The notes: a model not told the origin generated them from the sequence alone. A DNA stretch of 64,000 nucleotides from a bacterium (GCA_030647655.1 JAUSJH010000002.1:43711-107710); one strand, 5' to 3'; counted from the first letter of the stretch, positions 6,073 to 44,036 are shown. Numbers and translations: made by a program.

Positions 6073-6435
6073 ATGCGGAAAATCATTGTTTCGTCCGGTT
6101 TTGGCGCAGCTCTCATCGCGCTCCCCGCACTTGCTTCTGCGGCGACACTGCTCGATACACTCGCTCTTTTCAATACCTTCCTGAATGCCCTCATTGGGCT
6201 TTTCATCACACTTGCCATCGTGGTCTTCTTCTGGGGCCTCATTGAGTACCTCGTGAACGCGGGGGAAGAAAAGTCCAAAGGCCTGCAAACTATGTTCTAC
6301 GGCGTTATTTGCATCTTCGTCATGGTTTCCATCTGGGGTATCATCCGGCTTCTGCAGACTACCTTCAAAGTCACTTCGACCGATCCTGTAATCCCGAAAG
6401 GTATACAGATAAATACCGGAGGCACCTATTACTAA
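6073..6435 (+). CDS. TrbC/VirB2-like pilin family small membrane protein (paralog D)
   Basis: Signal peptide ALIALPALASAAT, two TM helices with loop GEEKSKG, and the motif FVMVSIWGIIRLLQTT nearly identical to paralog B. Confidence 0.55.
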   Translation: MRKIIVSSGFGAALIALPALASAATLLDTLALFNTFLNALIGLFITLAIVVFFWGLIEYLVNAGEEKSKGLQTMFYGVICIFVMVSIWGIIRLLQTTFKVTSTDPVIPKGIQINTGGTYY

Positions 6436-6484
6436 TGGGTCTCATGGCCGCGTCTTAAAAGGCTGAACGAAACGGCCGCGCTCT

Positions 6485-6793
6485 ATGGATGCTCTCGGAA
6501 ACGTAATGGATAAGTTCTGGGCCTATATCATCTCTCCGGCCATTCTTGTCATTTTCGCCTGCGGGTTCTTTCTGTTCGTTTTTGGACTCGTTGAGTTTCT
6601 CTGGAAGTTGAACGAAGGGGGAGATAATAAAGATGGGAAACAACACATGGTGTGGGGCATCGTCGGAATGCTCATCATGGTATCAGTGTGGGGTATTCTC
6701 GACCTACTCGACAACACCTTCGGCCTCGACTATAAGAATCCCGATGTCGGCCGCGCGCAGAACGTGCAAATCCCCGTCAATTTCGGGAATTGA
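6485..6793 (+). CDS. TrbC/VirB2-like pilin family small membrane protein (paralog E)
   Basis: Two TM helices with loop NEGGDNKDGK and the motif LIMVSVWGILDLL related to paralogs B and D. No obvious cleavable signal. An alternative start is possible at the internal Met, 6506. Confidence 0.5.
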   Translation: MDALGNVMDKFWAYIISPAILVIFACGFFLFVFGLVEFLWKLNEGGDNKDGKQHMVWGIVGMLIMVSVWGILDLLDNTFGLDYKNPDVGRAQNVQIPVNFGN

Positions 6794-6818
6794 GAAATAT
6801 TGTTAGGATACGCGAGTA

Positions 6819-6900
6819 GGGCAGGTGGCGTAATTGGTAGCCGCGCTAGGCTTAGGACCTAGTCCCGCAAGGGGTGCGAGTTCGAGTCTCGCCCTGCCCA
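6819..6900 (+). tRNA. tRNA-Leu (anticodon TAG)
   Basis: Acceptor stem GGGCAGG/CCTGCCC. Anticodon stem CTAGG/CCTAG with loop CTTAGGA. Long variable arm and T-loop GTTCGAGTC. CCA is not encoded. Confidence 0.8.
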
Positions 6901-6960
6901 CTGACGATTTCTAGGAGCGACGATGTTTCCAAATGGTGAAAGTTATGTACAATCGTTGAA

Positions 6961-7033
6961 CCGCCTATAGCTCAGCTGGTAGAGCAACTGCCTCTTAAGC
7001 AGTGGGTCCCTGGTTCGAATCCAGGTGGGCGGA
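6961..7033 (+). tRNA. tRNA-Lys (anticodon CTT)
   Basis: D-arm GCTCAGCTGGTAGAGC. Anticodon stem ACTGC/GCAGT with loop CTCTTAA. T-arm CCTGGTTCGAATCCAGG. Confidence 0.8.
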
Positions 7034-7100
7034 CTAACAAGGAATCGGTAGTGGGCAAAAGCGAACGAATCAATGAGTGATTACCCTCCCGTTATTTTTT

Positions 7101-7880
7101 CTAGAGCTTCTTCGAAAAATAGTGCGATTCTCGAACTTTCCAATTCCTTTTAAGAGGGTCTAGTACTTTTTCCCCGTATTTCTCTATTACTTCATCTGCC
7201 GTTTTGTTCTTAACCTCGTCATCTTCATTAGCCATGCCTTTAACAAGTTCCTCAAGGTGTGGATCCCTCTTTTTTAATTCGTATAATGTCCAAGTGGAAT
7301 CAAGGCCAGCTTTTCTTTCTATTTTTGCCAACGATGAATCGTTTGCTCTCGCACACTCCCAATAGACTACCGTAGCCTCAAAATAGTCGCGAAGTAAATC
7401 AGGAATGCTCATCGTCTTGAGTTTGTTTTCCATTTTTATAGTGAAGAGCAAATGTTGAACAGCGAGGATGAACATTGGGACAGAGAGCACCGTAATGAGC
7501 ACGTCCAACGACAATGTAGTTACTAAGTATGGTTCAGCTTGGATTAGCGAGAGTCCTAGATTCTCCACCCACAAATAAATCAGAAAGACTGTCGCGAAAA
7601 AGGCTACAAGCGCATATAATGCGATGAAGGTGTACGCAAGTTTGCCTCGCCATCGTAGGAAAGAGAGCAAAGCCACGAGACCAATTATTTCGACAGCCAG
7701 TGAAGTCAGGATGTCTATCGCTCCGTCATGATTGTGAAAATTGCCATATTGAGTCCGAATGGTGGTCGTTAGCCAGAGTCCAATCACGATCCAGAGGAGC
7801 CGATTTCGACTCTTCAAAAGTAGCAGAATCTCGTTCCACAGAAACGCATGGTAATTCTTCAGTTTTTCTTTTTCAGCCAT
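7101..7880 (-). CDS. hypothetical membrane protein (low-GC)
   Basis: 259 aa ORF with about 5 hydrophobic helices and a charged C-terminal domain. The local GC is markedly lower than the flanks. It lies between tRNA-Lys and tRNA-Leu. Confidence 0.5.
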   Translation of the reverse strand: MAEKEKLKNYHAFLWNEILLLLKSRNRLLWIVIGLWLTTTIRTQYGNFHNHDGAIDILTSLAVEIIGLVALLSFLRWRGKLAYTFIALYALVAFFATVFLIYLWVENLGLSLIQAEPYLVTTLSLDVLITVLSVPMFILAVQHLLFTIKMENKLKTMSIPDLLRDYFEATVVYWECARANDSSLAKIERKAGLDSTWTLYELKKRDPHLEELVKGMANEDDEVKNKTADEVIEKYGEKVLDPLKRNWKVRESHYFSKKL

Positions 7881-7911
7881 ACTGAGATTTTAACAACAAT
7901 ATATTGTTTTG

Positions 7912-7995
7912 TGCCGGGGGTGGGAGTCGAACCCACAAACCTGTTTAAGGTCAAAGATTTTAAGTCTTCTGCGTAAACCATTCCGCCACCCCGGC
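7912..7995 (-). tRNA. tRNA-Leu (anticodon TAA)
   Basis: The reverse complement reads GCCGGGGTGGCGGAATGG...CTTAAAA (anticodon TAA), a long variable arm, T-arm GGTTCGACTCC, and acceptor CCCCGGC. Confidence 0.8.
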
Positions 7996-8001
7996 AGATC
8001 C

Positions 8002-8586
8002 CTATGTCGCAGGATTTCTGCGCACTATGAGTATACACACGGTTGAGGCATAGGCGAGAAATAAGTACACAGGGTAGAGGATATTCTGAAGCTCTAGGTT
8101 GTTTGAGGAAAGTAGCCCGAATAGAGCACCAGCTGAGAGCAAGACATAGGTCATCATAGTTTCGCTGTGTGGTAATCGGTACGACTTGATGGATGTCGGC
8201 AAAAGGAATAGGATATCGGCGATAATCGAAATGATAATTGCTGAAAGGGGTTCTTTGGTCGCAATCCAACTGATAATTGCTACTACGCCAAGCACGAAAC
8301 ACACTTTGTCGAGCGTATTGAATTTCGCATACCCATACCGGATGCCTAACACAGCAATAGTGGCGGTGCCGATCGTAGAGGCAATAGGCACAACTAGTGA
8401 GAGATTGGTGCCTTTCGCGAACTGAGCAACTATGGTTATTGTCGTCAGTAACGACCAGCCGACCCAAGAAACAATATTAGGATGAGTAGTGCGTGACAAA
8501 ACATCCCGTATATAGGGAATAGTCCCGGCAACCAGAAGAAGTCCAGATAAAATCGCGCATCCTATACGGATCGCATCTATGCTCAT
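8002..8586 (-). CDS. hypothetical 6-TM membrane protein
   Basis: Hydrophobic throughout (MSIDAIRIGCAILSGLLLVAG...). Start chosen at the Met immediately next to tRNA-Cys; the upstream extension in the ORF track would overlap the tRNA. Confidence 0.45.
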   Translation of the reverse strand: MSIDAIRIGCAILSGLLLVAGTIPYIRDVLSRTTHPNIVSWVGWSLLTTITIVAQFAKGTNLSLVVPIASTIGTATIAVLGIRYGYAKFNTLDKVCFVLGVVAIISWIATKEPLSAIIISIIADILFLLPTSIKSYRLPHSETMMTYVLLSAGALFGLLSSNNLELQNILYPVYLFLAYASTVCILIVRRNPAT

Positions 8587-8587
8587 G

Positions 8588-8659
8588 AGGCCACGGCGGG
8601 ACTCGAACCCGCGCATAAGAGTTTTGCAGACTCCCGTGTTACCCCTTCACCACGTGGCC
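8588..8659 (-). tRNA. tRNA-Cys (anticodon GCA)
   Basis: The reverse complement reads GGCCACGTGGTGAAGGGGTAACAC-GGAGT-CTGCAAA-ACTCT...GCGGGTTCGAGTCCCGC-CGTGGCC. Confidence 0.8.
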
Positions 8660-8692
8660 ACGTGTCGAACGCCCAACGGGGCAACTATAGCA

Positions 8693-9016
8693 TCAGTTTC
8701 TCGTTAATTCATCGACCCGTTGGCGGTTCTTTTCGCCGATGTCGAGGAGGAAATCAACGACAGGAATCGGGTGGAGACGGCTGTGGTTTTTTATGTACGC
8801 GCGGAAGTCTGTGCGGCTACGCTTTGCGAATTTGAGGGCTTGTGCTTCCATCGTCTGCGGCAGGACGGAGAAAAATATCTTCACCTCTTTGAAACTTGGG
8901 GAGACATCCGCATGCGTCACGGTGATGAGTGCTTTGACGGCTGATTCGCGCGCGAGAAAATCTCCCGCCATATGCGCGATTACTTCTGAAACCTGTGTTT
9001 GTCTCCGTGATTCCAT
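8693..9016 (-). CDS. rbfA: ribosome-binding factor A
   Basis: 107 aa. KH-like RbfA signature (VKALITVTHADVSPSFKEVKIFFSV) and the classic position immediately downstream of infB with a 4-nt overlap. Confidence 0.8.
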   Translation of the reverse strand: MESRRQTQVSEVIAHMAGDFLARESAVKALITVTHADVSPSFKEVKIFFSVLPQTMEAQALKFAKRSRTDFRAYIKNHSRLHPIPVVDFLLDIGEKNRQRVDELTRN

Positions 9017-33150: not shown

Positions 33151-33168
33151 CTGGGGGACTTGGAATCG
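33151..33168 (-). repeat. 18-nt exact copy of the 3' end (T-arm/acceptor) of tRNA-Gln
   Basis: CTGGGGGACTTGGAATCG occurs at 33151-33168 and again at 33270-33287, the true tRNA 3' end. The copy at 33151 is not part of a foldable tRNA. Confidence 0.6.
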
Positions 33169-33269
33169 CCTCTCGTTGCTGCTGCAACTCGAAACCTTCG
33201 CTCCCTCGTCGGGAGCTGCGGCCCGCGGTTCGTATTCAAGTCTACCCCACTTTTCCGCTTCGCTTCAAA

Positions 33270-33340
33270 CTGGGGGACTTGGAATCGAACCAAGATTCAC
33301 AGCTCCAAAGGCTGCTGTCCTACCGTTAGACGATCCCCCA
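33270..33340 (-). tRNA. tRNA-Gln (anticodon TTG)
   Basis: The reverse complement reads TGGGGGATCGTCTAACGGTAGGAC-A-GCAGC-CTTTGGA-GCTGT-GAAT-CTTGGTTCGATTCCAAG-TCCCCCA-G, with a U1-A72 pair as in E. coli tRNA-Gln. Confidence 0.75.
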
Positions 33341-33399
33341 ATGTTTGTCGATACTACGGATTATATCCTCTTTTAGCAACCGGAAGGAGGTGTGGTAGC

Positions 33400-33792
33400 A
33401 TGGGCCACATGAACAAACTATTAGGCATCGCAGTCCTTATTATTCTCATCGGCGGGGGTTTTTGGTATATGCAATCTAACAAGCAGTCTAACAAATTTGT
33501 GAATACTGCAGATATGTGGGGCAAATACCCATATGAATGTGATGAGCATGTAACCTTTACAATGACACCAGCATCAGACATGAGTTCCATTCAGGTCGCG
33601 CCTTCCAACAATGGAACGTATCCGCCTGCGAGTACGCTTATGAAAAAGGAGAGCGCCTCGGGGGTTCGCTATGAGGGCAACGGCATCGTCTTTGCGGGAA
33701 GAGGAGAGACGGTAACGCTCGGAGAGGGGGACTCGGCCATCAACTGCTCTCCTATCCCGCAAGAGTGGGGGTCATTTAATTTTGGCGACTAG
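33400..33792 (+). CDS. small secreted/membrane-anchored hypothetical protein
   Basis: Strong RBS GGAAGGAGG 8 nt upstream. Signal anchor LLGIAVLIILIGGGFWY. 130 aa. Confidence 0.5.
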   Translation: MGHMNKLLGIAVLIILIGGGFWYMQSNKQSNKFVNTADMWGKYPYECDEHVTFTMTPASDMSSIQVAPSNNGTYPPASTLMKKESASGVRYEGNGIVFAGRGETVTLGEGDSAINCSPIPQEWGSFNFGD

Positions 33793-33889: not shown

Positions 33890-34420
33890 TCAGGAGCCTG
33901 CGGAGAATTTCACGTACGTCGGGATAACGAAGAACTTCACGTCCTTTGCCCAGTCGTGACAGTCCCAGCCGACGTTATCGGCGCTCACACCGAAGTTTGC
34001 TCCGCTCGTGAGGTCGTTGGGGATGACTTGAGGAAGTTCAGAGATAGATTTGATGCTCGACTTCTTACCGACCGTCGCGCCCTCCTTCCAACTGTAGAGA
34101 AAGCCGCCGTCGTATATCATGAGGTTTGCCGAAGTTTCGTTGCTTGATACCGTCCGGAACTCGCCGCGCATTTTTCCGTCGGCGATATATACCCTGCTAC
34201 TACTTTTCCCGGACGAGCTGACCTGCTCGTACAAGCATTCGTGATTTCCGGATTGAGTAAAGATGCTACGGAACGTGTTGGAGCCTGTTGGTTTTACGGC
34301 TGTGTTGCCGGTAGTGCCTTGTGTTTCAGTTACGTCGTTGTTTGAAGGTGAGAAATACCAAATACCAAGCGCGGCGATAATGATGACGACAATGCCTCCG
34401 ATGAGTATATTCTTGTTCAT
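33890..34420 (-). CDS. secreted hypothetical protein
   Basis: Start trimmed to MNKNILIGGIVVIIIAALGIWYF (a signal anchor). Thr/Ser/Gly-rich mature domain. Confidence 0.45.
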   Translation of the reverse strand: MNKNILIGGIVVIIIAALGIWYFSPSNNDVTETQGTTGNTAVKPTGSNTFRSIFTQSGNHECLYEQVSSSGKSSSRVYIADGKMRGEFRTVSSNETSANLMIYDGGFLYSWKEGATVGKKSSIKSISELPQVIPNDLTSGANFGVSADNVGWDCHDWAKDVKFFVIPTYVKFSAGS

Positions 34421-34566
34421 AGATTGATTTGAGAATAGATTATGTCTTTTACACGGTGACGAGGATGAGATCCAGCGACCTTTCGCGTGGATTATAGCAC
34501 ACATGTGGAGATATCGGAAGGTGGGAGGTACGTCGGTCCGCTTACGTGCGCCGCTCTCGCATCCCT

Positions 34567-35365: not shown

Positions 35366-35659
35366 ATGCACCATTTCGTCTACATTCTTGAATGCGCCGA
35401 CACAACGCTCTACGTAGGATGCACGAATGATTTGAATAAAAGATTGAAAGAGCACAACGGCGCAAAAGCGGGAGCTCATTACACCAAAATCCGCCGGCCC
35501 GTCGTTCTTAAGTACTCTGAAAGGTTTGTGACACTTGGAGAAGCTCGGGCACGAGAATATGAAATAAAAGGCTGGCGACGAGAGAAAAAAATTGCCTTAT
35601 TCACTCGAGGAGCTAGTCCTGAACGCAGTGAAGGACGCGCGCCCGAGAGGCGGAGATAA
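35366..35659 (+). CDS. GIY-YIG nuclease domain protein (UPF0213 family)
   Basis: [28 protein letters not shown], with the GIY-YIG motif and the conserved Arg/Glu. Confidence 0.7.
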
Positions 35660-35740: not shown

Positions 35741-35758
35741 ATACCCCCTAGGGGGTAT
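35741..35758. promoter_or_regulatory. CsoR-type operator (inverted repeat ATACCCCCTAGGGGGTAT) overlapping the csoR promoter
   Basis: A perfect 18-bp palindrome matching the ATACCC-N-GGGTAT consensus of copper-sensing CsoR operators. It sits 12 nt upstream of the csoR ATG, next to a TATATACT -10-like box. Confidence 0.6.
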
Positions 35759-35769
35759 ATACTGCCGCC

Positions 35770-36045
35770 ATGGCACACACGCATGACGCGAGCAAGAAGA
35801 GGCTGATGCGGCGCCTCAAGATTATCGAAGGTCAGATAAGGGGCCTTCAGAACATGATTAAGAAAGACATCTACTGTGTTGATGTCATTACACAAACATC
35901 GGCGGTAAAGCAGGGACTCTCCAATGTGGAGAATATGATTTTGGAGAACCACCTTTCGACCTGTGTCGTGAAGCAGATACAAGGCGGCAATTCGAAAAAG
36001 GCGGTTGACGAAGTACTCAAGGTCTACAAACTCAAGAGAAAATAG
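35770..36045 (+). CDS. csoR: copper-sensing transcriptional repressor, CsoR/RcnR family
   Basis: 91 aa. RLKIIEGQIRGLQNMIKKDIYCVDVITQTSAVKQGL...LENHLSTCV with the conserved Cys/His metal ligands, immediately upstream of copA. Confidence 0.8.
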   Translation: MAHTHDASKKRLMRRLKIIEGQIRGLQNMIKKDIYCVDVITQTSAVKQGLSNVENMILENHLSTCVVKQIQGGNSKKAVDEVLKVYKLKRK

Positions 36046-36046
36046 T

Positions 36047-38350
36047 ATGGCGCACGACACGTACAGGGTAAAAGGCATGCACTGCGCGTCGTGCGCGAGC
36101 ATTATTGAGAAGACGCTCAAGAAGGTGAACGGCGTGCAGAGCGTCGAGGTCAATTACGGGACCGAGACGGCCAAGGTGACTTTTGATGAAGCAAAAACAA
36201 ATCCACGCCACCTTTCACAAAAAATAGAACCGCTTGGATATTCTCTCTCGCTCTCGGCGCCGGCGTCCGCAGAGCCCACAGCGGCGTCCATGGGCATGTC
36301 GGAGAACGAACACGCAGCGCACCTCGGGCTCAATCAGACAAAAGAAGAAAAACTGGCCGAGCTTGCAGGAATGAAGCGCATGCTTATGAGTGCTTTGCCG
36401 CTTGCGGCACTCGCCGCCGCGGGAATGATGTGGGGGATAGCGGTACGACTCGCGTTTCTGCCAAATTCTTCTGCACTTACCTCCGCGCTCGGGTTCTTCA
36501 CGCCGCTTGCGGCTACGTACATGCTTTTCGTTGTGGGCAGGCCCTACCTCTTGGGTTTCTACCGCTTTTTGCGCTATGGGCATGCAAATATGGATACCCT
36601 CATCGGTATCGGCACATCCGCCGCCTATATCTACAGCGTTGCAGTATCAATATTCGCGAAAGAGCTGACCCCATTCATCAACGTGGACAGTACCTACTAC
36701 GACGTCACCATCATTGTGATAGCGTTCATTACTCTCGGGAAATATCTTGAAGCGCAGTCAAAATTGAAAACAGGGGACGCGATAGAGAAGCTTTTGAATC
36801 TGCAAGCGAAAACGGCCCTCATCATCCGCGATGGTAAGGAGCTAGAAATTCCGGTAGACCAAGTTGTGCAGGGAGATCTTATCGTCGTGAAGCCAGCGGG
36901 GAGAATACCCGTGGACGGAATACTCACCGAAGGTTCGTCATATGTCGATGAGTCAATGATCACGGGAGAGCCCATGCCGGTAAAAAAGGCGGCGGGGGAT
37001 ACGGTAGTTGCGGGAACGCTCAATACGAGTGGGTCGTTCACATTTAAGGCGACGAAGGTTGGTTCAGAAACGATGCTCGCGCACATCGTCAAGATGGTGG
37101 AAGAGGCGCAGGGCTCTCGTGCCCCTATTCAGGCGCTTGCCGACAAGATTTCAGGCGTTTTCGTGCCCATCGTGCTCATCGTCGCGTTTCTCGCGCTGGC
37201 GAGCTGGCTTGTCGTCGGCTCGCAGTACCTCGGCTTCGCGCAGGCGCTTTCTTTCGGGCTCGTGTCATTTGTGGGCGTTCTTGTCATCGCATGCCCGTGC
37301 GCTCTCGGCCTCGCGACGCCGACTGCGATTATTGTTGGCGTAGGCAAAGGCGCGAGGGAGGGTATCCTCATCAAAGACGCGGCAACGCTGGAGAAACTTC
37401 ACAAGGTGGACGTCATTCTCGTGGATAAGACTGGCACCATCACGCGAGGTAGGCCGGAACTTATGTCAATAAAGAATCTGTCCGAGAAAAGCGATACAGA
37501 TATCATCGCGATACTTTCATCTCTTGAAAACAGGTCTGAGCATCCTATAGCGCATGCGGTTGTGAATTATGCAAAAGAGAAAGATATTGCGCTTTTACCC
37601 GTAGAGCAATTTGAAATAATCAAAGGAAAAGGACTCGGCGGTGTCATAAACGGCGTAGAATATCGGGTTGGGAGTGAGAAGCTCGCCCGTGAACTAGGAG
37701 CCACGTTCGCTTCACTTGAGAAAGACACATCAGAGGGAAAAACACCGGTCATTTTGGCAGCGAGCGGGAAAGCGCTCGCGGTCGTAATGGTAGCCGACCA
37801 AGTGAAGCCGGAGTCAGTACAGGCTGTGAAGGATTTGCACGTACTCGGAATTAAAATAGTGATGTTGACGGGAGACGACAAGAACACCGCACGATTCATT
37901 GCGGACCAAGTCGGCATCGACGAAGTAGTCGCGGAGGTCTTGCCGGAAGATAAGCTGAAAAAAATACAGGCGCTTCAGGCAAGTGGTCTCGTAGTCGCCA
38001 TGGCAGGCGATGGCGTTAATGACGCGCCTGCTTTGGCACAGGCGGATGTGGGCATCGCGATGGCGACAGGGACCGACGTTGCCATTGAATCTGCGGGCAT
38101 CACTCTCTTGCATGGCGATATCTCAAAGTTGGTGAAGGCTGTCCGCCTTTCAAAAATGACGATGCGCGGCATCAAGCAGAATCTCTTTTGGGCATTCATC
38201 TACAACATCGTCGGCATCCCGCTTGCGTCGGGAGTATTTTTCCCATTCTTCGGATGGCTCTTGAGCCCTGTCTTTGCGGGACTTGCCATGGCTTTCAGTA
38301 GTGTTAGTGTTGTAGTGAACTCCCTTCGTCTTAAGGCAAAAGCACTATGA
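36047..38350 (+). CDS. copA: copper-translocating P1B-type ATPase
   Basis: N-terminal HMA domain (GMHCASCASIIEKTL), TM CPC motif (IACPCALGLATP), and the DKTGT, TGD and GDGVNDAPAL motifs. Confidence 0.95.
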   Translation: MAHDTYRVKGMHCASCASIIEKTLKKVNGVQSVEVNYGTETAKVTFDEAKTNPRHLSQKIEPLGYSLSLSAPASAEPTAASMGMSENEHAAHLGLNQTKEEKLAELAGMKRMLMSALPLAALAAAGMMWGIAVRLAFLPNSSALTSALGFFTPLAATYMLFVVGRPYLLGFYRFLRYGHANMDTLIGIGTSAAYIYSVAVSIFAKELTPFINVDSTYYDVTIIVIAFITLGKYLEAQSKLKTGDAIEKLLNLQAKTALIIRDGKELEIPVDQVVQGDLIVVKPAGRIPVDGILTEGSSYVDESMITGEPMPVKKAAGDTVVAGTLNTSGSFTFKATKVGSETMLAHIVKMVEEAQGSRAPIQALADKISGVFVPIVLIVAFLALASWLVVGSQYLGFAQALSFGLVSFVGVLVIACPCALGLATPTAIIVGVGKGAREGILIKDAATLEKLHKVDVILVDKTGTITRGRPELMSIKNLSEKSDTDIIAILSSLENRSEHPIAHAVVNYAKEKDIALLPVEQFEIIKGKGLGGVINGVEYRVGSEKLARELGATFASLEKDTSEGKTPVILAASGKALAVVMVADQVKPESVQAVKDLHVLGIKIVMLTGDDKNTARFIADQVGIDEVVAEVLPEDKLKKIQALQASGLVVAMAGDGVNDAPALAQADVGIAMATGTDVAIESAGITLLHGDISKLVKAVRLSKMTMRGIKQNLFWAFIYNIVGIPLASGVFFPFFGWLLSPVFAGLAMAFSSVSVVVNSLRLKAKAL

Positions 38351-38763
38351 ATACATTCTCACAAAGAAATATCCTAGCGGCGCTCATGCTGGTGTCGTTT
38401 CTCGCGGTCGTACTTTTCAGTTTTGCCGCCATGGCGCATGGGGAGGAAGGAGGCATGCAGGGTGACTGCCCGTTTTCCGCCATGGGATTACCACTGTGTC
38501 CACAAAACATAGATGCCGCCGTTGTCCACCATATATCGGCATATCAATCATTTCTCGCGGTGTTCGTGGGCCCGAGCATAACGGTCGCTATAATCTCCTT
38601 GCTCTCCGGTCTGTTTGCCGCATTTCTACTCTCGACCGGACCGCCTTTATACAGGTCATATGTGTTTAAGACACGTTTCCACAGCATTTCGTCCCCAGCT
38701 CCGCGAGATAGAAAGACAGCTCGCTGGCTCTCGCTTTTAGAGAACAGTCCCTCCGTCGCCTAG
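38347..38763 (+). CDS. small membrane protein with CPF/LCP Cys motif (hypothetical, copA-linked)
   Basis: Signal anchor plus a second TM. GDCPFSAMGLPLCPQN between the helices. Overlaps the copA stop (ATGA). Confidence 0.45.
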   Translation: MNTFSQRNILAALMLVSFLAVVLFSFAAMAHGEEGGMQGDCPFSAMGLPLCPQNIDAAVVHHISAYQSFLAVFVGPSITVAIISLLSGLFAAFLLSTGPPLYRSYVFKTRFHSISSPAPRDRKTARWLSLLENSPSVA

Positions 38764-38793
38764 AACACCCAAAAGCAGAGGCTTTTGGGTGTT
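38764..38793 (+). terminator. 12-bp stem-loop after the copA-linked small gene
   Basis: AACACCCAAAAG-CAGAGG-CTTTTGGGTGTT. Confidence 0.55.
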
Positions 38794-38851
38794 CACGCTC
38801 GCCAAACCGGCGGGACGTGTATTTCTTTATCTATCTATAAATCTAAAAACT

Positions 38852-39352
38852 ATGAAAAACAAAACATTAATCTACTCTGTCGTTTTCTTCCTTGCGATCA
38901 TGGGCCTCTTCGCATGGGGCAATGCCGCAAAGGGCGGGGATACATCAGGATCGAATAGTCAAAAAAGCGCTCTTGTCGCGCCGGAAGTTCTCTACGACTT
39001 CGGCATAATCTCAATGAAAAACGGCAATGTCACCAAAGAGTTCACCGTGACCAACCCCACGCAAGAGGACATCACCGTAAAGACCGTGTTCACTTCCTGC
39101 ATGTGCACGGAGGCCTTCATCGTGGAGTCAGACGGGAGCGCCAAGGGGCCATTCGGCATGCCGGGTCATGGCGGCGCAGTTCCGCCTGCCAACGAACTCA
39201 TTAAGGCGGGCGAGAGCCGCTCCATCCGTGTTGTCTACGACCCGAATGCGCACGGCCCGGCCGGAGTAGGCGTTATTGACAGGTTCGTAACGCTCACTGA
39301 CACATCTGGTAATACGGTCGAACTAGAAATCAAGGCAAACGTGACCCCTTAG
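38852..39352 (+). CDS. DUF1573-like secreted protein
   Basis: Signal peptide MKNKTLIYSVVFFLAIMGLFAWG. YDFGIISMKNGNVTKEFTVTNPTQEDITV...SCMCT...SIRVVYDP matches the DUF1573 Ig-like fold pattern. Confidence 0.55.
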   Translation: MKNKTLIYSVVFFLAIMGLFAWGNAAKGGDTSGSNSQKSALVAPEVLYDFGIISMKNGNVTKEFTVTNPTQEDITVKTVFTSCMCTEAFIVESDGSAKGPFGMPGHGGAVPPANELIKAGESRSIRVVYDPNAHGPAGVGVIDRFVTLTDTSGNTVELEIKANVTP

Positions 39353-39354
39353 TT

Positions 39355-40134
39355 ATGAAGCGAATCCTTATCATCGCGGGTGTCATAGGCGCATTCATTC
39401 TTGCCGTCATTGTCCTCAAATTCAGTCCCGCAACATCAACACTCATCTGGAGCGCGAGCCAGGGCGGCGCGTGGCTTTTGCCGCTCGTGCTCATATCGTC
39501 GCTTCTCGACAGCGTACATCCGTGCTCGTTCTCCATCCTCCTTATCACGATAGCGTTCTTGTTCGGACTGCAGTTGACGCGCGAGAAAATCCTGCAAATT
39601 GGAGGCGTCTACATCGCCGGCATATTCGCGGCGTATCTCGCGATAGGGCTCGGCTTACTCAAGGTCTTGCACCTCTTCAATACTCCGCACTTCATGGGGA
39701 AGCTGGGCGCCTCGCTTCTCATCCTCTTCGGCATCATCAACTTGCTGAACCGGTTCTTCCCGAATATGCCGATCAAACTCAAAATGCCGTCCCTAGTAAA
39801 TCGGCCTATGGCGAAACTCTTGGAGCAGACGTCTATCGCTGCGGCATTCGGGCTCGGTATCTTGGTCGGCATATGTCAGTTCCCCTGCATGGGCGGGCCG
39901 TACCTAATGGTCATCGGGCTTCTGCGCGACAGCCAGACGTATCTCGCAGGGTTCTGGTATCTACTCTTGTACAATGTAATCCTCATCGTGCCGCTCGTCC
40001 TCGTCTTGTGGTTCTCTGCCGATAAAACCGTGGTAGACAAGATGCAGGAATGGAAACGCGAGAACCTCTCGCACGTACGGCTCATAGCCGGCATCACCAT
40101 GATCGTACTCGGCGCGCTTATTCTCATCGTCTGA
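39355..40134 (+). CDS. CcdA/DsbD-like thiol-disulfide transporter membrane protein
   Basis: Six TM helices with Cys in TM1 (HPCSFSILLITIAF) and TM4 (CQFPCMGGPYLM), as in the cytochrome c biogenesis CcdA/DsbD_2 family. Confidence 0.6.
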   Translation: MKRILIIAGVIGAFILAVIVLKFSPATSTLIWSASQGGAWLLPLVLISSLLDSVHPCSFSILLITIAFLFGLQLTREKILQIGGVYIAGIFAAYLAIGLGLLKVLHLFNTPHFMGKLGASLLILFGIINLLNRFFPNMPIKLKMPSLVNRPMAKLLEQTSIAAAFGLGILVGICQFPCMGGPYLMVIGLLRDSQTYLAGFWYLLLYNVILIVPLVLVLWFSADKTVVDKMQEWKRENLSHVRLIAGITMIVLGALILIV

Positions 40135-40141
40135 TAACGCT

Positions 40142-40591
40142 ATGCTCATTACTATCACCGTCGTCTCAATTCTGGCCGTTACTGTACTGGTATGGCTCGC
40201 CAACAGGATACTGCCGTTCAAGGTTTGTCCGGTATGCGCCGGAGTATTTCTCACGTGGGTGTGGCTTCTCGGCGCATACTTCTTGGGCTACCAGATTGCT
40301 CTCGTGGTCCCCGCGCTTCTCATGGGCGGGTCGGTTGTCGGCATCGTGTATCAGGTGGAGAAGAAATTGCGGAACGTATCGGCCGGTGCGTTTCTGCTCT
40401 GGAAAGCGTTCTTTATCCCGGCTGGATTTGTCGCCGCGTACGCCGTTCTCGAACAATTGTGGACCGGACTCTTTCTCGCGGTCGCTTTTCTCGTGGCGAT
40501 ATCAGCTTGGTTCTTGTCTTCAAACAGTAGACCAGACTCGCGCAAAGAAACCGCCGAGGAAATTGAGAAGAAAATGAAAGATTGCTGCTAA
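40142..40591 (+). CDS. membrane protein with TM CPVC motif and C-terminal CC
   Basis: Four TM helices, KVCPVCAG in TM1/2, and a charged tail ending in DCC. Confidence 0.45.
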   Translation: MLITITVVSILAVTVLVWLANRILPFKVCPVCAGVFLTWVWLLGAYFLGYQIALVVPALLMGGSVVGIVYQVEKKLRNVSAGAFLLWKAFFIPAGFVAAYAVLEQLWTGLFLAVAFLVAISAWFLSSNSRPDSRKETAEEIEKKMKDCC

Positions 40592-40604
40592 TTAAAATTA
40601 AATT

Positions 40605-41585
40605 ATGGAACAACAAACACTCATAAAGAAAATAGATGTTGCATATCGCGAGTACGGCACTCCCGTTAGCATTGTGATTGCGGCAGTTATTATTGCGAAC
40701 GCGATGTCCCTGACACAGGGTAGCGGCACCGCTGGATTTCTCGGAGGTAATCTTTCGGGAGCGGATGCAAAGCTCTCGGCGTTGGAGGAGGCGGTACTTC
40801 CCGCGGAAGGCGTGAAGTTGCCGATTGTGTGGGGCGACCTCGGTGCCCAGCTTGTAGAAGCGGGAGCAATTGACCCAGTAGCGTTCAAAAAGATATATCA
40901 GTCTCGCGGAACATTTTCTGCCGAGTACGAGAAGCTTCTCTCCGGACGCACGAATGGCCCGCTCACGATTACGGCAGACAATGCCGGATATCTCCTCAAT
41001 TTGCTCTGGGCTTTCGGACTTGCCAACAAAAATCCGATACTCGAAGACAAAAAGGAAATGATGAACCCGGAGTACGGTGAAGTGGGCAACTTCGCCTCGA
41101 CTGGCGGGTGGACAATCGCCAAAGGAAACGCGATGGACCACTACAGCAAGCACGCGCTCGTTACGCTTACCGCAGAGCAACAGAAGCTTGTCGATGAGGT
41201 ATCACGCAACATCTACCGGCCGTGTTGCGGCAATTCGGTACACTTTCCCGACTGCAATCATGGCATGGCGATGCTCGGACTCCTTGAGCTCATGGCCTCG
41301 CAAGGTGTAAGCGAGAAAGACATGTACAAAACAGCGCTCGTGGTCAATTCCTATTGGTTCCCGGACACATATCTTACGATTGCGATGTACATGCAAAGCA
41401 AGGGTGTTTCGTGGGGAGCTGTGTCACCGAAGGAAATGCTCGGTGCCGATTATTCGAGCGCGGCGGGTTTCCAGAACATCTCGTCGCAAGTCAACGTTCC
41501 TTCGGGTAATGGCGGAGGAGGCGGCTGTGGCGTAGATACAGGAGCGTCGGCTGCGCCGCAGCAGCAAAGCGGGTGTGGGGTGTAG
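40605..41585 (+). CDS. membrane-anchored hypothetical protein with Cys cluster
   Basis: N-terminal TM anchor. YRPCCGNSVHFPDCNHG Cys/His cluster. Gly-rich C-terminus ending in CGV. Confidence 0.45.
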   Translation: MEQQTLIKKIDVAYREYGTPVSIVIAAVIIANAMSLTQGSGTAGFLGGNLSGADAKLSALEEAVLPAEGVKLPIVWGDLGAQLVEAGAIDPVAFKKIYQSRGTFSAEYEKLLSGRTNGPLTITADNAGYLLNLLWAFGLANKNPILEDKKEMMNPEYGEVGNFASTGGWTIAKGNAMDHYSKHALVTLTAEQQKLVDEVSRNIYRPCCGNSVHFPDCNHGMAMLGLLELMASQGVSEKDMYKTALVVNSYWFPDTYLTIAMYMQSKGVSWGAVSPKEMLGADYSSAAGFQNISSQVNVPSGNGGGGGCGVDTGASAAPQQQSGCGV

Positions 41586-41625
41586 AATTAGAAGTCAACA
41601 CTTATTACGTAACAAAATAACAAGT

Positions 41626-42282
41626 ATGAAAACAAACACATTGGTATCAGTGCGAAACGCCTTACTCATTCTGGTGTTTGCGAGTGCGTTGCCGATCTTG
41701 GCCTTCGGACAAACTACGTCGACCGACACCACTACAGATGAAGTCGCCGCCGGTCAGCAACTCTGGCAGAAGCTCGGAGCGAAGCAAATCTCGTGCAATA
41801 AGCTGACGGACTCCGATTACGAACACCTCGGCGAGTACTTCATGAGCCAAATGATGGGAAGTTCCCACGAGGCTATGAACGAGACACTCAAAAGCCGTTT
41901 GGGAGCGAGTGGTGAAGAGCAAATGCATCTCGCTATGGGGAAGCGCTTGAGCGGTTGTGACACGCAGGCCGCGTATCCTTCTGGCTTCCAGGGCTTCATG
42001 CCAATGATGGGCGGAGGGTCAGGTTATTACGGGTCTAACAATGGAACTTCTATGATGGGAGGATATGGCGGTTGGCTGATGGGATTAGGCGGTATCTGGA
42101 TGCTCTTCAATGTTCTGTGGTGGGTTGTTGTAGTAGCCGCAATCATCTGGCTAGTGAGGCGATTCTTTGGTACGTCTAGAAGTGGAGGAGGTTCGCCGCT
42201 CGATATACTCAAAGGTCGCTATGCGAAAGGGGAGATAGACAAGGAAGAATTCGAGTCAAAGAAAAAGGACCTCACTGCATAA
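41626..42282 (+). CDS. membrane protein with C-terminal SHOCT domain
   Basis: Signal peptide, a Met/Gly-rich region, a TM helix, then DILKGRYAKGEIDKEEFESKKKDL, the SHOCT motif. Confidence 0.5.
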   Translation: MKTNTLVSVRNALLILVFASALPILAFGQTTSTDTTTDEVAAGQQLWQKLGAKQISCNKLTDSDYEHLGEYFMSQMMGSSHEAMNETLKSRLGASGEEQMHLAMGKRLSGCDTQAAYPSGFQGFMPMMGGGSGYYGSNNGTSMMGGYGGWLMGLGGIWMLFNVLWWVVVVAAIIWLVRRFFGTSRSGGGSPLDILKGRYAKGEIDKEEFESKKKDLTA

Positions 42283-42291
42283 CAACAAACT

Positions 42292-42393
42292 ATGCACAAC
42301 CATAACGGCAAGGGGGATAATTCAATGATGTGGATGACGGTGCTCTGCTGCGCACTGCCGCTCGTTGTCCTCCTTGTCCTGGCGCTTCGATGA
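42292..42393 (+). CDS. 33-aa hydrophobic peptide (tentative)
   Basis: MHNHNGKGDNSMMWMTVLCCALPLVVLLVLALR. A His-rich N-terminus plus one TM helix. Below the ORF-track cutoff. Confidence 0.25.
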   Translation: MHNHNGKGDNSMMWMTVLCCALPLVVLLVLALR

Positions 42394-42423
42394 CACAGTC
42401 GTAATTACTAACGAACAATCTCT

Positions 42424-42678
42424 ATGATTAATACAACTCATCTTCTCAAAGTTACGGCGGCGTGGATAAGCATCGTGTATGCCGTTTGCTTTCTTGGCGT
42501 AGCGCTCTTCCCCGGAATCAGGTCAGCGTTCATGTATTACGGGCTTCATACGACGGCAAGCGTGGGCGAGAACATAATGACGCTCACTACATTCCTCTCC
42601 GGCCTCGTGGTATGGAACGTAGTCGCACTTCTGGCGGTTGGCCTGTTCGCCGCGCTCTTCAACAAAATCAAGGCGTAA
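42424..42678 (+). CDS. small 2-TM membrane protein
   Basis: 84 aa with two hydrophobic helices. Confidence 0.35.
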   Translation: MINTTHLLKVTAAWISIVYAVCFLGVALFPGIRSAFMYYGLHTTASVGENIMTLTTFLSGLVVWNVVALLAVGLFAALFNKIKA

Positions 42679-42761
42679 AGAAGGCGGGTGTGATAGGATG
42701 GTCGCTTACATGCCGGATTCGGGTCAAAAGACATGGACACTTATCGACTATTTAGGAATCT

Positions 42762-43178
42762 ATGAAAACAGGATTTATCATTGCCGGCATCGTGGCGGTG
42801 CTCCTAATCGGTGGCGTATGGTGGACAAACAGTCTCCAAAACAATGATTCGGACGTTATAGCCAGAAGCGGCTTACACTGGCATCCGACCCTTGCTATCT
42901 ACGTGAAAGGAGAGAAAGTTGAAATTCCGCAGAACGTCGGGCTGGGCGCGGTGCATAAGCCGATGCATACGCATGAGGACCTGCCGCTCATACATCTCGA
43001 ATTTAGTGGTGTCGTAAAGAGAGAGGACCTCATGCTCGGGCAGTTCTTCAAGAATTGGGAACGTGACATGCGCTCGTTCGGAGAGAACATGCGCATGACG
43101 GTAAATGGAGTCGAAAATACAGAATATGATAGTTATGTCATGAAGGATAAGGATGCAATAGAATTACATTTTGACTAA
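42762..43178 (+). CDS. secreted hypothetical protein
   Basis: Signal anchor MKTGFIIAGIVAVLLIGGVWW. His-rich segment LHWHP...HKPMHTHEDLP, a possible metal-binding site. Confidence 0.45.
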   Translation: MKTGFIIAGIVAVLLIGGVWWTNSLQNNDSDVIARSGLHWHPTLAIYVKGEKVEIPQNVGLGAVHKPMHTHEDLPLIHLEFSGVVKREDLMLGQFFKNWERDMRSFGENMRMTVNGVENTEYDSYVMKDKDAIELHFD

Positions 43179-43202: not shown

Positions 43203-44036
43203 TCAATCCCGCACGATGACGGGCGTGCCCACATCGGCCCACAGGTAGAGCGTGTGCGCTTGCTCAAGCGGAAGGTTCACACATCCATGCGACCATCGTT
43301 TCCCGAACTTATCGTGCCAGTACGCACCATGGATGACGCCGCCCTCACGGGTGAAATATAAATTCCACGGCACGCCGGGGAGATCGTAGTATTGGGCGCT
43401 CACGCCGGGCAGGGGCCCCTGCATATAGCGGGTCGGAGTCTTTTTGTAGACGGTGAATGTGCCGCGCGGCGTGGGCGTGAATGCGAGTCCGGAAGATATT
43501 CGCTCCTGCATGAACAGCGTGTCGCCTTCGTATGCATAGAGCATTTGTGCGGAGCGATCGACGAGAATGCGCTTTGTGCTCGAAGCTCTTGTGCCTCCCG
43601 CCAAGTTGATGATGCCTTCGTCGCTGAACGGGCGGACGAATTCTCCAGCCACATACCAATTTCTGCTCACGCGCTCGGGGTAACGGACGGGTTCGTCAAA
43701 TGCGATTTTGTACCACGTGCGCCCATCACGCTCGAGCGTTTCCCCTACCTTGAGCACCACGCCCGTGCGCAACCGCGTGACCACGGGATATTTTTCGCCG
43801 GGACCGGAGCGGACATGTACGCATGTTCCCTCAAAGTACGGCCCGCAGCTGTCCATTACCTCAATGTATTGAAAGAGTGGCGGTGCGACGATGGGCTCTG
43901 TTTGTTCTATTGGCGCCGTTGCGACTGCCGGCACGGCACTTCGCGTGATTTCTTGCAGGGTCAGGTCGGTTACGAGGACAATCGCTACTGTGGCCAAGAG
44001 CACAAGAAATATCCTCTGTCGCACAAGCACGCTCAT
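43203..44036 (-). CDS. L,D-transpeptidase (YkuD domain)
   Basis: Catalytic motif HGAYWHDKFGKRWSHGCVNL and an N-terminal signal anchor. Confidence 0.8.
   Translation of the reverse strand: MSVLVRQRIFLVLLATVAIVLVTDLTLQEITRSAVPAVATAPIEQTEPIVAPPLFQYIEVMDSCGPYFEGTCVHVRSGPGEKYPVVTRLRTGVVLKVGETLERDGRTWYKIAFDEPVRYPERVSRNWYVAGEFVRPFSDEGIINLAGGTRASSTKRILVDRSAQMLYAYEGDTLFMQERISSGLAFTPTPRGTFTVYKKTPTRYMQGPLPGVSAQYYDLPGVPWNLYFTREGGVIHGAYWHDKFGKRWSHGCVNLPLEQAHTLYLWADVGTPVIVRD

Follow-up and report, generated by a model that had tools for sequence, protein, structure and literature searches.

A csoR-copA operon of a Kaiserbacteria-like patescibacterium contains a conserved module of cysteine-rich membrane and envelope proteins with a putative role in thiol and Cu(I) handling

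A block of 11 plus-strand genes (35770-43178) was identified from the open reading frame (ORF) listing of a 64,000-nt stretch of bacterial DNA (GCA_030647655.1 JAUSJH010000002.1:43711-107710), hereafter referred to as the window, from whose first nucleotide positions are counted. The block comprises csoR, copA and nine further genes, here designated G2 to G10. We assign a probability of roughly 0.5 to the reading that these genes form a CsoR-controlled copper-stress operon, in which CopA is accompanied by a self-contained envelope module for thiol and Cu(I) handling (G2 to G6) that is Scs-like or CcdA-TlpA-Sco-like in its logic and assembled from new parts. That the module is conserved and is tied to a CsoR-type operator and a copper pump is established by the evidence below. 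The host is a Kaiserbacteria-like member of the Patescibacteria represented by a metagenome-assembled genome, with Candidatus Kaiserbacteria and other Parcubacteria/Paceibacteria as the nearest named relatives according to homologues of G6, G4 and G10. A first-pass annotation of this DNA had described nine plus-strand ORFs following copA, and all nine were recovered where it had placed them and with the features it had listed. The copA and G2 genes overlap by 4 nt, the remaining intergenic gaps within the block span 2-88 nt, and a convergent gene (43203-44036) closes it. Base composition is uniform across the csoR-copA-G2-G10 region, and a promoter/terminator consensus scan of the operon returned counts close to the shuffled expectation. 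The array is not a chance succession of ORFs, since its gene order recurs in dozens of genomes and the core cysteines are near-invariant, those flagged by the first-pass annotation in G2 to G6 being conserved in at least 53 of 54 sequences in the homologue alignments.

The csoR product matched Trns_repr_metal (Pfam) at 89.4 bits against a cut-off of 22.8, with the copper sensor RicR as its best NCBIfam match (1.7e-19, under the cut-off of that model). Its sequence presents a cysteine (..IYCVD..) and a His-x3-Cys element (..NHLSTC..), which we take to be the C-H-C set of ligands by which CsoR proteins sense Cu(I), not the RcnR/FrmR pattern. The palindrome ATACCCCCTAGGGGGTAT is situated 11 nt 5' of the csoR ATG and occurs once in the window, with 0.01 occurrences expected by chance. 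G-tract pseudopalindromes are described as the operator type of CsoR in an earlier study (PMC3902906), and ATACCCCCTAGGGGGTAT is a predicted CsoR-type operator at csoR's own promoter. CopA exceeded the TIGR01511 (copper-translocating ATPase) cut-off of 397 bits by a wide margin, at 600 bits, and carries the GMHCASC, CPC (in ACPCALGLATP), YN and MAFSS motifs that place it among the P1B-1 ATPases. Related loci contain 48 palindromes of the form TACCC-N4-8-GGGTA, where shuffled sequences yield 3.6, and 35 of the 48 lie just upstream of csoR. Another six are located 9-22 nt upstream of a G2 homologue (loci L004, L018, L030, L056, L058 and L071), in genomes where csoR and copA are either downstream of the module or do not adjoin it. 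These six sites constitute the strongest evidence that G2 to G6 themselves respond to copper, beyond their proximity to copA.

Co-conservation was assessed by tblastn of the window proteins against 80 loci from GTDB species-representative genomes, chosen as the best G6 matches; 68 of these were informative (at least 3 kb of sequence upstream of G6) and 48 were long (at least 12 kb). The genes were found in a fixed order on one strand, namely (csoR-copA)-G2-G3-G4-[G5 or another gene]-G6. Among the long loci, copA was present in 45 and csoR in 32, so that the copper link proposed in the first-pass annotation, which also draws on the CsoR box heading the operon and the six palindromes preceding G2, is well supported. 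Within 4 kb of G6, every informative locus (68/68) encoded an extracytoplasmic dithiol protein, 65 a DsbD-superfamily membrane protein, 47 a protein with a vicinal-cysteine (CC) tail, and 46 a G2 homologue. Flanking housekeeping genes were shared with the closest relatives only, and hence the module behaves as a self-contained unit and travels as one. The arrangement with DUF1573 (G3) and G4 occurred in 54-56 of the 80 loci, three loci had a DUF1573 fusion without G4, and five were too short to judge. The remaining 16 showed non-orthologous replacement, in that G3 and G4 gave way to a DsbD_TM protein with two CC motifs (Pfam 7e-7) and an anchored Sco/AhpC-TSA-like protein with a CxxxC and a GHT motif (CYPAC..GHT), both positioned between G2 and G6; the Sco-like partner in L020 matched SCO1-SenC weakly (24.2 bits against 22.8). 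Further loci add a CPHC thioredoxin-like protein. Thiol reduction and copper chaperoning are known roles of the families to which these replacement partners belong. The nine genes had been put forward as one unit, which holds for the tightly co-conserved G2 to G6, within which G5 alternates with an unrelated soluble CC-tail protein, and not for G7, G8, G9 and G10; these were found in 31, 13, 11 and 3 of 86 loci, respectively (tblastn; six loci were duplicates), a low occurrence that marks them as variable accessories.

G2, the first gene of the conserved module, encodes a protein with a short outer segment containing C41, C51 and an HH pair, and with a cytoplasmic end motif, WLSLxENSPS. Alignment of 54 sequences showed C41 in all and C51 in 53. 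G3 belongs to DUF1573 (PF07610; 41.6 bits against a cut-off of 26.1) and also matched the HYDIN/VesB Ig-like family, with a match to the NCBIfam OS_HP2 (seleno)protein model (3.2e-4) below its cut-off. The CxC of its TSCMCT motif (C84-x-C86) was retained in 57/57 sequences, H135 is invariant, and position 107 is occupied by His in 34 and Met in 23 of these. Such alternation between His and Met is common among copper ligands. DUF1573 includes selenoproteins whose UGC motif (PMC9312934) corresponds in position to the CxC of G3 and thereby marks the latter as a reactive site. In a group of Yonathbacteria loci (L001/L017, L024 and L072, ~6400-7980), DUF1573 forms the C-terminus of a 520-aa YNCE/beta-propeller protein encoded directly upstream of G6, with no G4/CcdA-like gene nearby.

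An NCBI protein identical to that of G4 is named 'cytochrome c biogenesis protein CcdA', homologues are named CcdA by both NCBI and JGI, and homologues carry precomputed PF11139 or PF02683 assignments. Members of the G4 family matched SfLAP (15/23) or DsbD_TM (7/23; best 1.4e-7), and hhalign comparison with the DsbD_TM-type neighbours of G6 gave a probability of 89.5% (E 2e-6, 190 columns) with the Pro-Cys motifs aligned. NCBIfam matches of the window protein were all below cut-offs (ArsG 7e-6, TsoB weak, DsbD E 0.046), and searches against PDB sequences returned spurious K-channel matches only. Taken together, the family matches and hhalign result identify G4 as a divergent protein of the predicted DsbD fold, assigned by homology to the LysE/DsbD-clan superfamily. 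Its invariant cysteines are those of HPC57 and FPC178, the 'PC' motifs of two transmembrane (TM) helices, and C174; H106 and H112, in a predicted outer loop, are likewise invariant. With G4 placed in the DsbD/CcdA superfamily, the CxC of DUF1573 invariant and both genes replaced elsewhere by DsbD_TM proteins with Sco/peroxiredoxin-like or thioredoxin-like partners, the thiol/disulfide link suggested by the first-pass annotation can be upheld.

In the G5 protein, a CPxC lies where TM2 begins on the cytoplasmic side and the cytoplasmic tail terminates in CC, all four cysteines being present in 22/22 sequences. This topology is deduced from the positive-inside rule, from variants that lack TM1 and start with ..ICPIC, and from a G5::G6 fusion. 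In most loci the G5 slot is held by an unrelated soluble helical protein of ~164 aa (type B) ending in ..KLADCC(D/N/K)E, which shares with G5 only the last 17 residues, the CC tail. Homology of G5 to the same-slot gene of L004 was considered and rejected, the 17-aa C-terminal tail alone being common to the two. Neither the type-B nor the G5 profile matched any PDB entry.

G6 is the hub of the module. It retrieved 7,382 homologues at E <=0.001 among 8,000 scored candidates, none with a Pfam domain and all named 'hypothetical'. In an exhaustive profile search the family fell into 699 clusters (50% identity), of which 262 scored below 1e-30, and at least 575 matches were confirmed in GTDB species-representative genomes, the best 80 being nearly all Patescibacteria. 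About one-third of positions are invariant in a 25-member alignment, including the motifs RPCCGN..FPDCNHG, FASTGGW and NSYWFP, and the flexible, Gly-rich C-terminal tail ends in GGCG(V/I/A); the Cys motif and tail are retained in the most distant members and in Burkholderia. The AlphaFold model is mostly helical, with an overall predicted local distance difference test score (pLDDT) of 71.5 and a core mostly above 80, and no significant sequence or structure match to the PDB was obtained. Fusions also connect G6 with its neighbours. In P0128, a G5::G6 fusion is found downstream of G2-DUF1573-G4, and in other proteins the G6 domain is joined to a TM domain of another kind, which bears a GCxxCG motif; Pfam domains were absent from the long G6 fusions except for a BNR repeat in one. 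One TM(GCxxCG)::G6 fusion is part of a csoR-ATPase-fusion-cupredoxin operon (L087), where the gene 3' of the fusion (8491-8913) encodes an anchored cupredoxin of 140 aa in which the CuA-type motif, H..CSIYCGAGHSSM, is complete. Nothing respiratory was observed near this cupredoxin. Two loci labelled as other taxa, L018 (Thermodesulfovibrionia; contig of 6.9 kb) and L052 (Ignavibacteriaceae; contig of 12.4 kb, of which 11.1 kb was examined), contain a typical Patescibacteria-type module with G6 62-63% identical; their labels probably reflect mis-binning, with transfer as a possible alternative.

Homologues of G6 were also detected by tblastn of the whole plasmid collection, on plasmids of Burkholderia contaminans, B. 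thailandensis and Paraburkholderia fungorum (35-37% identity, E ~1e-30), where they are annotated hypothetical and have the motif YRPCCDNSTFYQDCNHG intact. In the proteobacterial form (B. contaminans plasmid, L093 7935-8885), a twin-arginine RRRFL signal replaces the TM anchor of Patescibacteria, which hints that the G6 domain folds or binds a cofactor before export. The gene order in B. contaminans is cueR, DUF2933, CcdA, peroxiredoxin-family, thioredoxin, ICMT, peroxiredoxin, P-type ATPase and the G6 homologue, followed by S-adenosylmethionine (SAM) methyltransferase, cytochrome c and TlpA genes and, further along, by DUF411, DsbD-domain, CcdA, TlpA and SCO genes; the neighbourhood in B. thailandensis is similar. 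G6 is therefore associated with copper sensors, pumps and CcdA/thioredoxin-type proteins in a second phylum too. The DsbD_TM partner in the candidate phyla radiation (CPR) loci is 35-38% identical to Burkholderia CcdA, and the CPR Sco-like partner 27% identical to the Burkholderia 'peroxiredoxin family' protein. Transfer of G6 across phyla, between Patescibacteria and Burkholderia, is a possibility. A class I SAM methyltransferase gene lies directly after the G6 homologue in two of the plasmids and directly before it in the third.

The accessory families G7 to G10 recur in copper islands (features of the block are listed in Table 1). G7 contains a SHOCT domain (PF09851; 39.8 bits against a cut-off of 27) and in other loci is often found upstream of csoR, with only the TM and SHOCT parts conserved; the SHOCT and DUF1573 domain checks called for by the first-pass annotation were thus both above Pfam cut-offs. 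The same annotation had listed a 33-aa His-rich peptide, and while this ORF (G8) is present, it is not a standalone family, being the truncated form of a two-TM family of 91-100 aa (MHNHN..MMWMM..CC..HGGHG..CCH). Full-length relatives occur in L014 (10020-10295), L010 (8722-9006), L030 (9881-10174), L040 and other loci, and the short form also occurs in L013; since the spacer between G8 and G9 is just 30 nt long, the remainder of the gene has been deleted, not frameshifted. Assignment of G8 to DUF2933 (PF11666) was not confirmed, as neither G8 nor its full-length relative in L030 had a Pfam match and BLASTP against a Burkholderia DUF2933 protein was not significant (E 0.068). G9 belongs to DUF5676 (PF18926; 41.5 bits against 27.6), with conserved H6, C22 and H42, and its homologues recur beside P-type ATPases and G6 in other loci. 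The G10 family had 241 detected members, all named ones being Patescibacteria, and shares an invariant His/Glu cluster (H39, H41, H69, H71, H78 and E80) on a predicted fold that appears beta-grasp-like, not a cupredoxin/CopC-type sandwich. It was near a P-type ATPase in 3/3 contexts examined, adjoining a DUF305, multicopper oxidase or DsbA-like gene, and may work with copper oxidases in some Patescibacteria. In L091 (5001-6948), the G10 homologue overlaps the start of a gene for a 513-aa three-domain multicopper oxidase. Identification of G10 as DUF3105 was rejected, the DUF3105 protein adjoining G6 in L004-L006 being unrelated. No match to any Pfam or NCBIfam family was obtained for G2, G5, G6, G8 or G10, and the CopC, CopD and PCuAC domains, for which searches had been recommended, were not matched by any of the nine proteins at E <=0.1 (<=5 for G8 and G10).

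Table 1. Features of the csoR-copA-G2-G10 block in the window
Feature	Position	Strand	Basis
CsoR-type operator (predicted), ATACCCCCTAGGGGGTAT	35741-35758	n/a	perfect 18-bp G-tract palindrome
csoR, copper-sensing repressor, 91 aa	35770-36045	+	Pfam Trns_repr_metal E 2.1e-25
copA, Cu(I)-exporting P1B-type ATPase, N-terminal HMA domain	36047-38350	+	TIGR01511 600 bits
G2, 138-aa two-TM protein, carries DCPFSAMGLPLCP	38347-38763	+	ORF, conserved Cys
G3, anchored/secreted DUF1573 Ig-like protein	38852-39352	+	Pfam DUF1573 E 1.3e-10
G4, 259-aa polytopic membrane protein, divergent DsbD/CcdA (LysE-clan) superfamily	39355-40134	+	family-level homology
G5, 149-aa five-TM protein, VCPVC and terminal ..KKMKDCC	40142-40591	+	conserved Cys, synteny
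G6, 326 aa, N-terminal TM anchor, predicted extracytoplasmic domain, carries RPCCGNSVHFPDCNHG	40605-41585	+	invariant motifs
G7, signal peptide, Met/Gly-rich ectodomain, TM helix, cytoplasmic SHOCT	41626-42282	+	SHOCT E 3.4e-10
G8, 33-aa His/Met-rich peptide, MHNHN..., CC in TM helix	42292-42393	+	ORF, longer relatives
G9, DUF5676 two-TM protein	42424-42678	+	DUF5676 E 2.6e-10
G10, membrane-anchored 138-aa His-rich protein, HWHP..HKPMHTHED	42762-43178	+	invariant His cluster

Several other genes were observed in and around these islands. Genes of the ICMT/PEMT methyltransferase family (L004 12243-12884, L030 10184-10825, L053 7069-7722 and L093 3664-4323) recur in copper islands that hold proteins with a C-terminal CC, CCH or CCDE tail, and none is present in the window. 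Immediately 5' of the CsoR box, a 97-aa GIY-YIG-like ORF was found (35366-35659, plus strand); ORFs resembling it border the module in L035 (at 90% identity), in L086 and in the L004 group, and a further one adjoins the G10-multicopper oxidase pair in L091. This ORF may represent a mobility or homing element linked to the copper island. The interval that separates the upstream housekeeping genes from the copper operon contains two small ORFs whose N-terminal segments are hydrophobic (33160-33792, plus strand, and 33890-34504, minus strand) and a tRNA gene (33270-33340, minus strand).

The first-pass annotation had regarded the cluster as uncharacterised as a unit, and in agreement with this nothing relevant was found in the literature on the gene combination or on copper systems of Patescibacteria. 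Known systems nonetheless offer precedents for its logic. The Scs proteins of Salmonella, Caulobacter and Proteus are copper-induced, and both Cu(I) binding and thiol-oxidoreductase activity are known from the ScsC/ScsB pair (PMC10907172, PMC8900818, PMC3322552), with a subpicomolar Cu(I) affinity for Caulobacter ScsC (PMC8900818). In both scsABCD and the present cluster, a DsbD-type membrane protein is coupled to extracytoplasmic cysteine proteins, and the small membrane protein ScsA is comparable to G2. However, no thioredoxin-fold protein is encoded among G2 to G10 (Pfam/NCBIfam), the partners being the DUF1573 CxC protein and G6; G4 is a bare TM protein that lacks the periplasmic domains of ScsB; and the cluster is under CsoR, whereas Salmonella uses its own copper-stress regulators. 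The host of the window cluster also has a single membrane, unlike the Scs hosts. As neither the thioredoxin fold of ScsC/ScsD nor the N-terminal domains of ScsB are found, the cluster is a functional analogue of Scs and not a member. In the CcdA/TlpA(ResA)/ScoI/PcuC systems, a DsbD_TM-type protein and anchored dithiol proteins keep copper-binding cysteines reduced or carry copper, TlpA holding those in ScoI and CoxB in reduced form (PMC6669012); in the 16 loci with non-orthologous replacement, proteins of these kinds stand in for G3 and G4. The module here differs in being under a copper-excess sensor with no cytochrome oxidase client, and G6 differs from PCuAC, which has a beta-fold and His/Met-based copper binding, in being helical and Cys-based. 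No SCO1/SenC or PCuAC Pfam match was obtained in the window.

Two further comparisons concern parts of the pattern only. The merR-copA-cupredoxin-DUF2933-ICMT island of Alteromonas and other Gammaproteobacteria (PMC8478169), which is described but uncharacterised, resembles only the accessory pattern; it too is a sensor and ATPase operon with small His/Cys-rich membrane proteins, related CPR loci hold ICMT/PEMT-family genes (and L087 a cupredoxin), and the Burkholderia G6 islands hold DUF2933 and ICMT genes. It contains no G6, DUF1573 or DsbD-fold genes (PMC8478169), whereas the window is without an ICMT or cupredoxin gene and its G8 was not confirmed as DUF2933. The second comparison is with mercury resistance. 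In the MerP-MerT-MerA system, a soft metal is handed over via an extracytoplasmic CxxC, vicinal TM cysteines and a flexible C-terminal CC tail to a buried Cys site. The CC tails of G5, type B and G8 and the C-terminal Cys tail of G6 recall this as a mechanistic analogy only, since G2 to G10 match no Mer family (Pfam/NCBIfam), the sensor and pump are of the copper type, and transport, if any, would be outward. The logic of the present system is known, and its new parts are the G6 fold, the DUF1573 dithiol partner, the CC-tail proteins and the divergent DsbD branch.

The best mechanistic reading combines the Scs idea, in which copper harms or occupies exposed thiols and is countered by DsbD-fed reduction with Cu(I)-binding thiol oxidoreductases among its components, with the TlpA-ScoI idea that the copper-binding cysteines of chaperones need to stay reduced. 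Cytoplasmic Cu(I) would free CsoR from the palindrome, leading to transcription of the whole block, and CopA would expel Cu(I). Anchored in the single membrane and facing outwards, G6 would serve as a Cu(I)-binding hub or sink that captures or passes on the expelled ion, using a buried Cys-Cys/Cys/His site and its flexible Cys-bearing tail; G3 would supply a CxC site, the His/Met position and a further His, with the two-Cys protein G2 as a possible participant in Cu(I) binding. G4 would be the membrane conduit through which cytoplasmic reducing equivalents keep the exposed thiols reduced, with G5, or elsewhere the soluble CC-tail protein, as its cytoplasmic partner. The role of dithiol partner would fall to G3 here and to Sco-like or thioredoxin-like proteins elsewhere, and the SHOCT, G8, DUF5676 and G10 genes would be exchangeable copper-island accessories. 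The net effect would be protective, with detoxification and disulfide reduction, as the first-pass annotation had suggested, as putative outputs.

A number of observations weigh against this model. The window G4 itself has no Pfam match, DsbD_TM included, so that of its proposed DsbD_2/CcdA identity the superfamily homology stands and the domain match does not. Its conserved residues (C57, C174, C178, H106 and H112) exceed what an electron-only CcdA needs, two vicinal CC pairs occur in the alternative CcdA-like protein, and metal hand-over would explain the cytoplasmic CC tails of G5, type B and the G8-like proteins no less well than electron transfer would. As no fold or family can be recognised for G6, its putative copper binding is read only from motif chemistry and context, and the metal-site loop of its model is of moderate confidence (pLDDT ~64-67). 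The CPHC thioredoxin-like and CuA-type cupredoxin neighbours suggest oxidising or cuproprotein-maturation roles in place of detoxification. Finally, the co-conservation frequencies describe the close family and not all 699 clusters, the 80 loci having been the best G6 matches. Sequence is compatible with either electrons or Cu(I) as the cargo of G4, and with either detoxification or cuproprotein loading as the output.

Should the cargo be copper, CC-tail proteins would relay Cu(I) to the membrane Cys/His residues of G4 and onwards to the CxC of G3 and to G6, as a second export or sequestration route beside CopA. The surplus invariant residues of G4, the CC pairs that its CcdA-like alternative has in both Cys motifs, the occurrence of cytoplasmic C-terminal CC tails in three unrelated proteins, the membrane-embedded CPxC of G5 or GCxxCG of the fusion-type TM domain, and the His/Met alternation in G3 are all consistent with such a relay, and the LysE/DsbD clan includes metal transporters too. 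We nonetheless consider it rather unlikely, as copper carriage is known for no DsbD/CcdA-family protein, a passive carrier seems redundant beside the ATP-driven CopA, the replacement partners (TlpA/peroxiredoxin-like and CPHC thioredoxin-like) are classic redox proteins, and G4 homologues are annotated CcdA by NCBI and JGI. The extended, Mer-like version, in which G6 founds a new class of extracytoplasmic copper-handling proteins and the accompanying DsbD-fold proteins carry Cu(I) thiolates fed by the CC-tail proteins, is a similarly tentative proposal. Were the output instead cuproprotein maturation, G6 and its dithiol partners would act as a TlpA-Sco-PCuAC analogue that loads NirK, multicopper oxidases or cupredoxins of the CuA type. 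In at least 16 loci G6 has a Sco-like neighbour with CxxxC and His, the G6 fusion in L087 is followed by a cupredoxin with the CuA motif, G10 adjoins a multicopper oxidase in L091, the Burkholderia island includes SCO, TlpA and cytochrome genes, and TlpA/ScoI/PcuC provide a precedent (PMC6669012). Control by CsoR, however, implies expression at cytoplasmic Cu(I) excess, not need; the operon contains no cuproprotein gene, and a cupredoxin query found none in most of the 80 loci; and the ATPase, with its N-terminal HMA domain, is highly similar to efflux-type CopA, all of which renders this role improbable. It is very improbable that these are housekeeping genes for thiol-disulfide exchange or cytochrome c maturation that adjoin copA by accident. 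The database name 'CcdA' for G4 would suit such a function, and CcdA classically acts in cytochrome c maturation and on sporulation proteins, but the CXXCH motif is absent from all ORFs of at least 100 aa in the window, in line with the earlier view that no cytochrome c is served, and the cluster proteins matched no Ccs, Res or Ccm family (Pfam/NCBIfam). CsoR-box-like sites directly precede the module in six genomes, its copA linkage extends over 45/48 long loci and a second phylum, and to our knowledge Patescibacteria are generally without respiratory chains.

Copper-induced envelope thiol and Cu(I) handling remains the reading that we favour. Patescibacteria represent a large share of bacterial diversity, and almost none of their lineage-enriched proteins has a function; for the highly conserved G6 family, genomic context now provides a testable hypothesis, which the presence of the family in culturable, genetically tractable Burkholderia makes directly testable. 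If correct, it would add a new protein fold and partner set (DUF1573 CxC and CC-tail proteins) to envelope copper protection, and would assign roles both to DUF1573 and to a divergent branch of DsbD proteins whose present label, 'cytochrome c biogenesis', misnames them in organisms believed to be cytochrome-free. Should the Mer-like proposal hold instead, the module would amount to a cysteine bucket brigade for copper, a new transport function of the DsbD fold that would be widespread in Patescibacteria.

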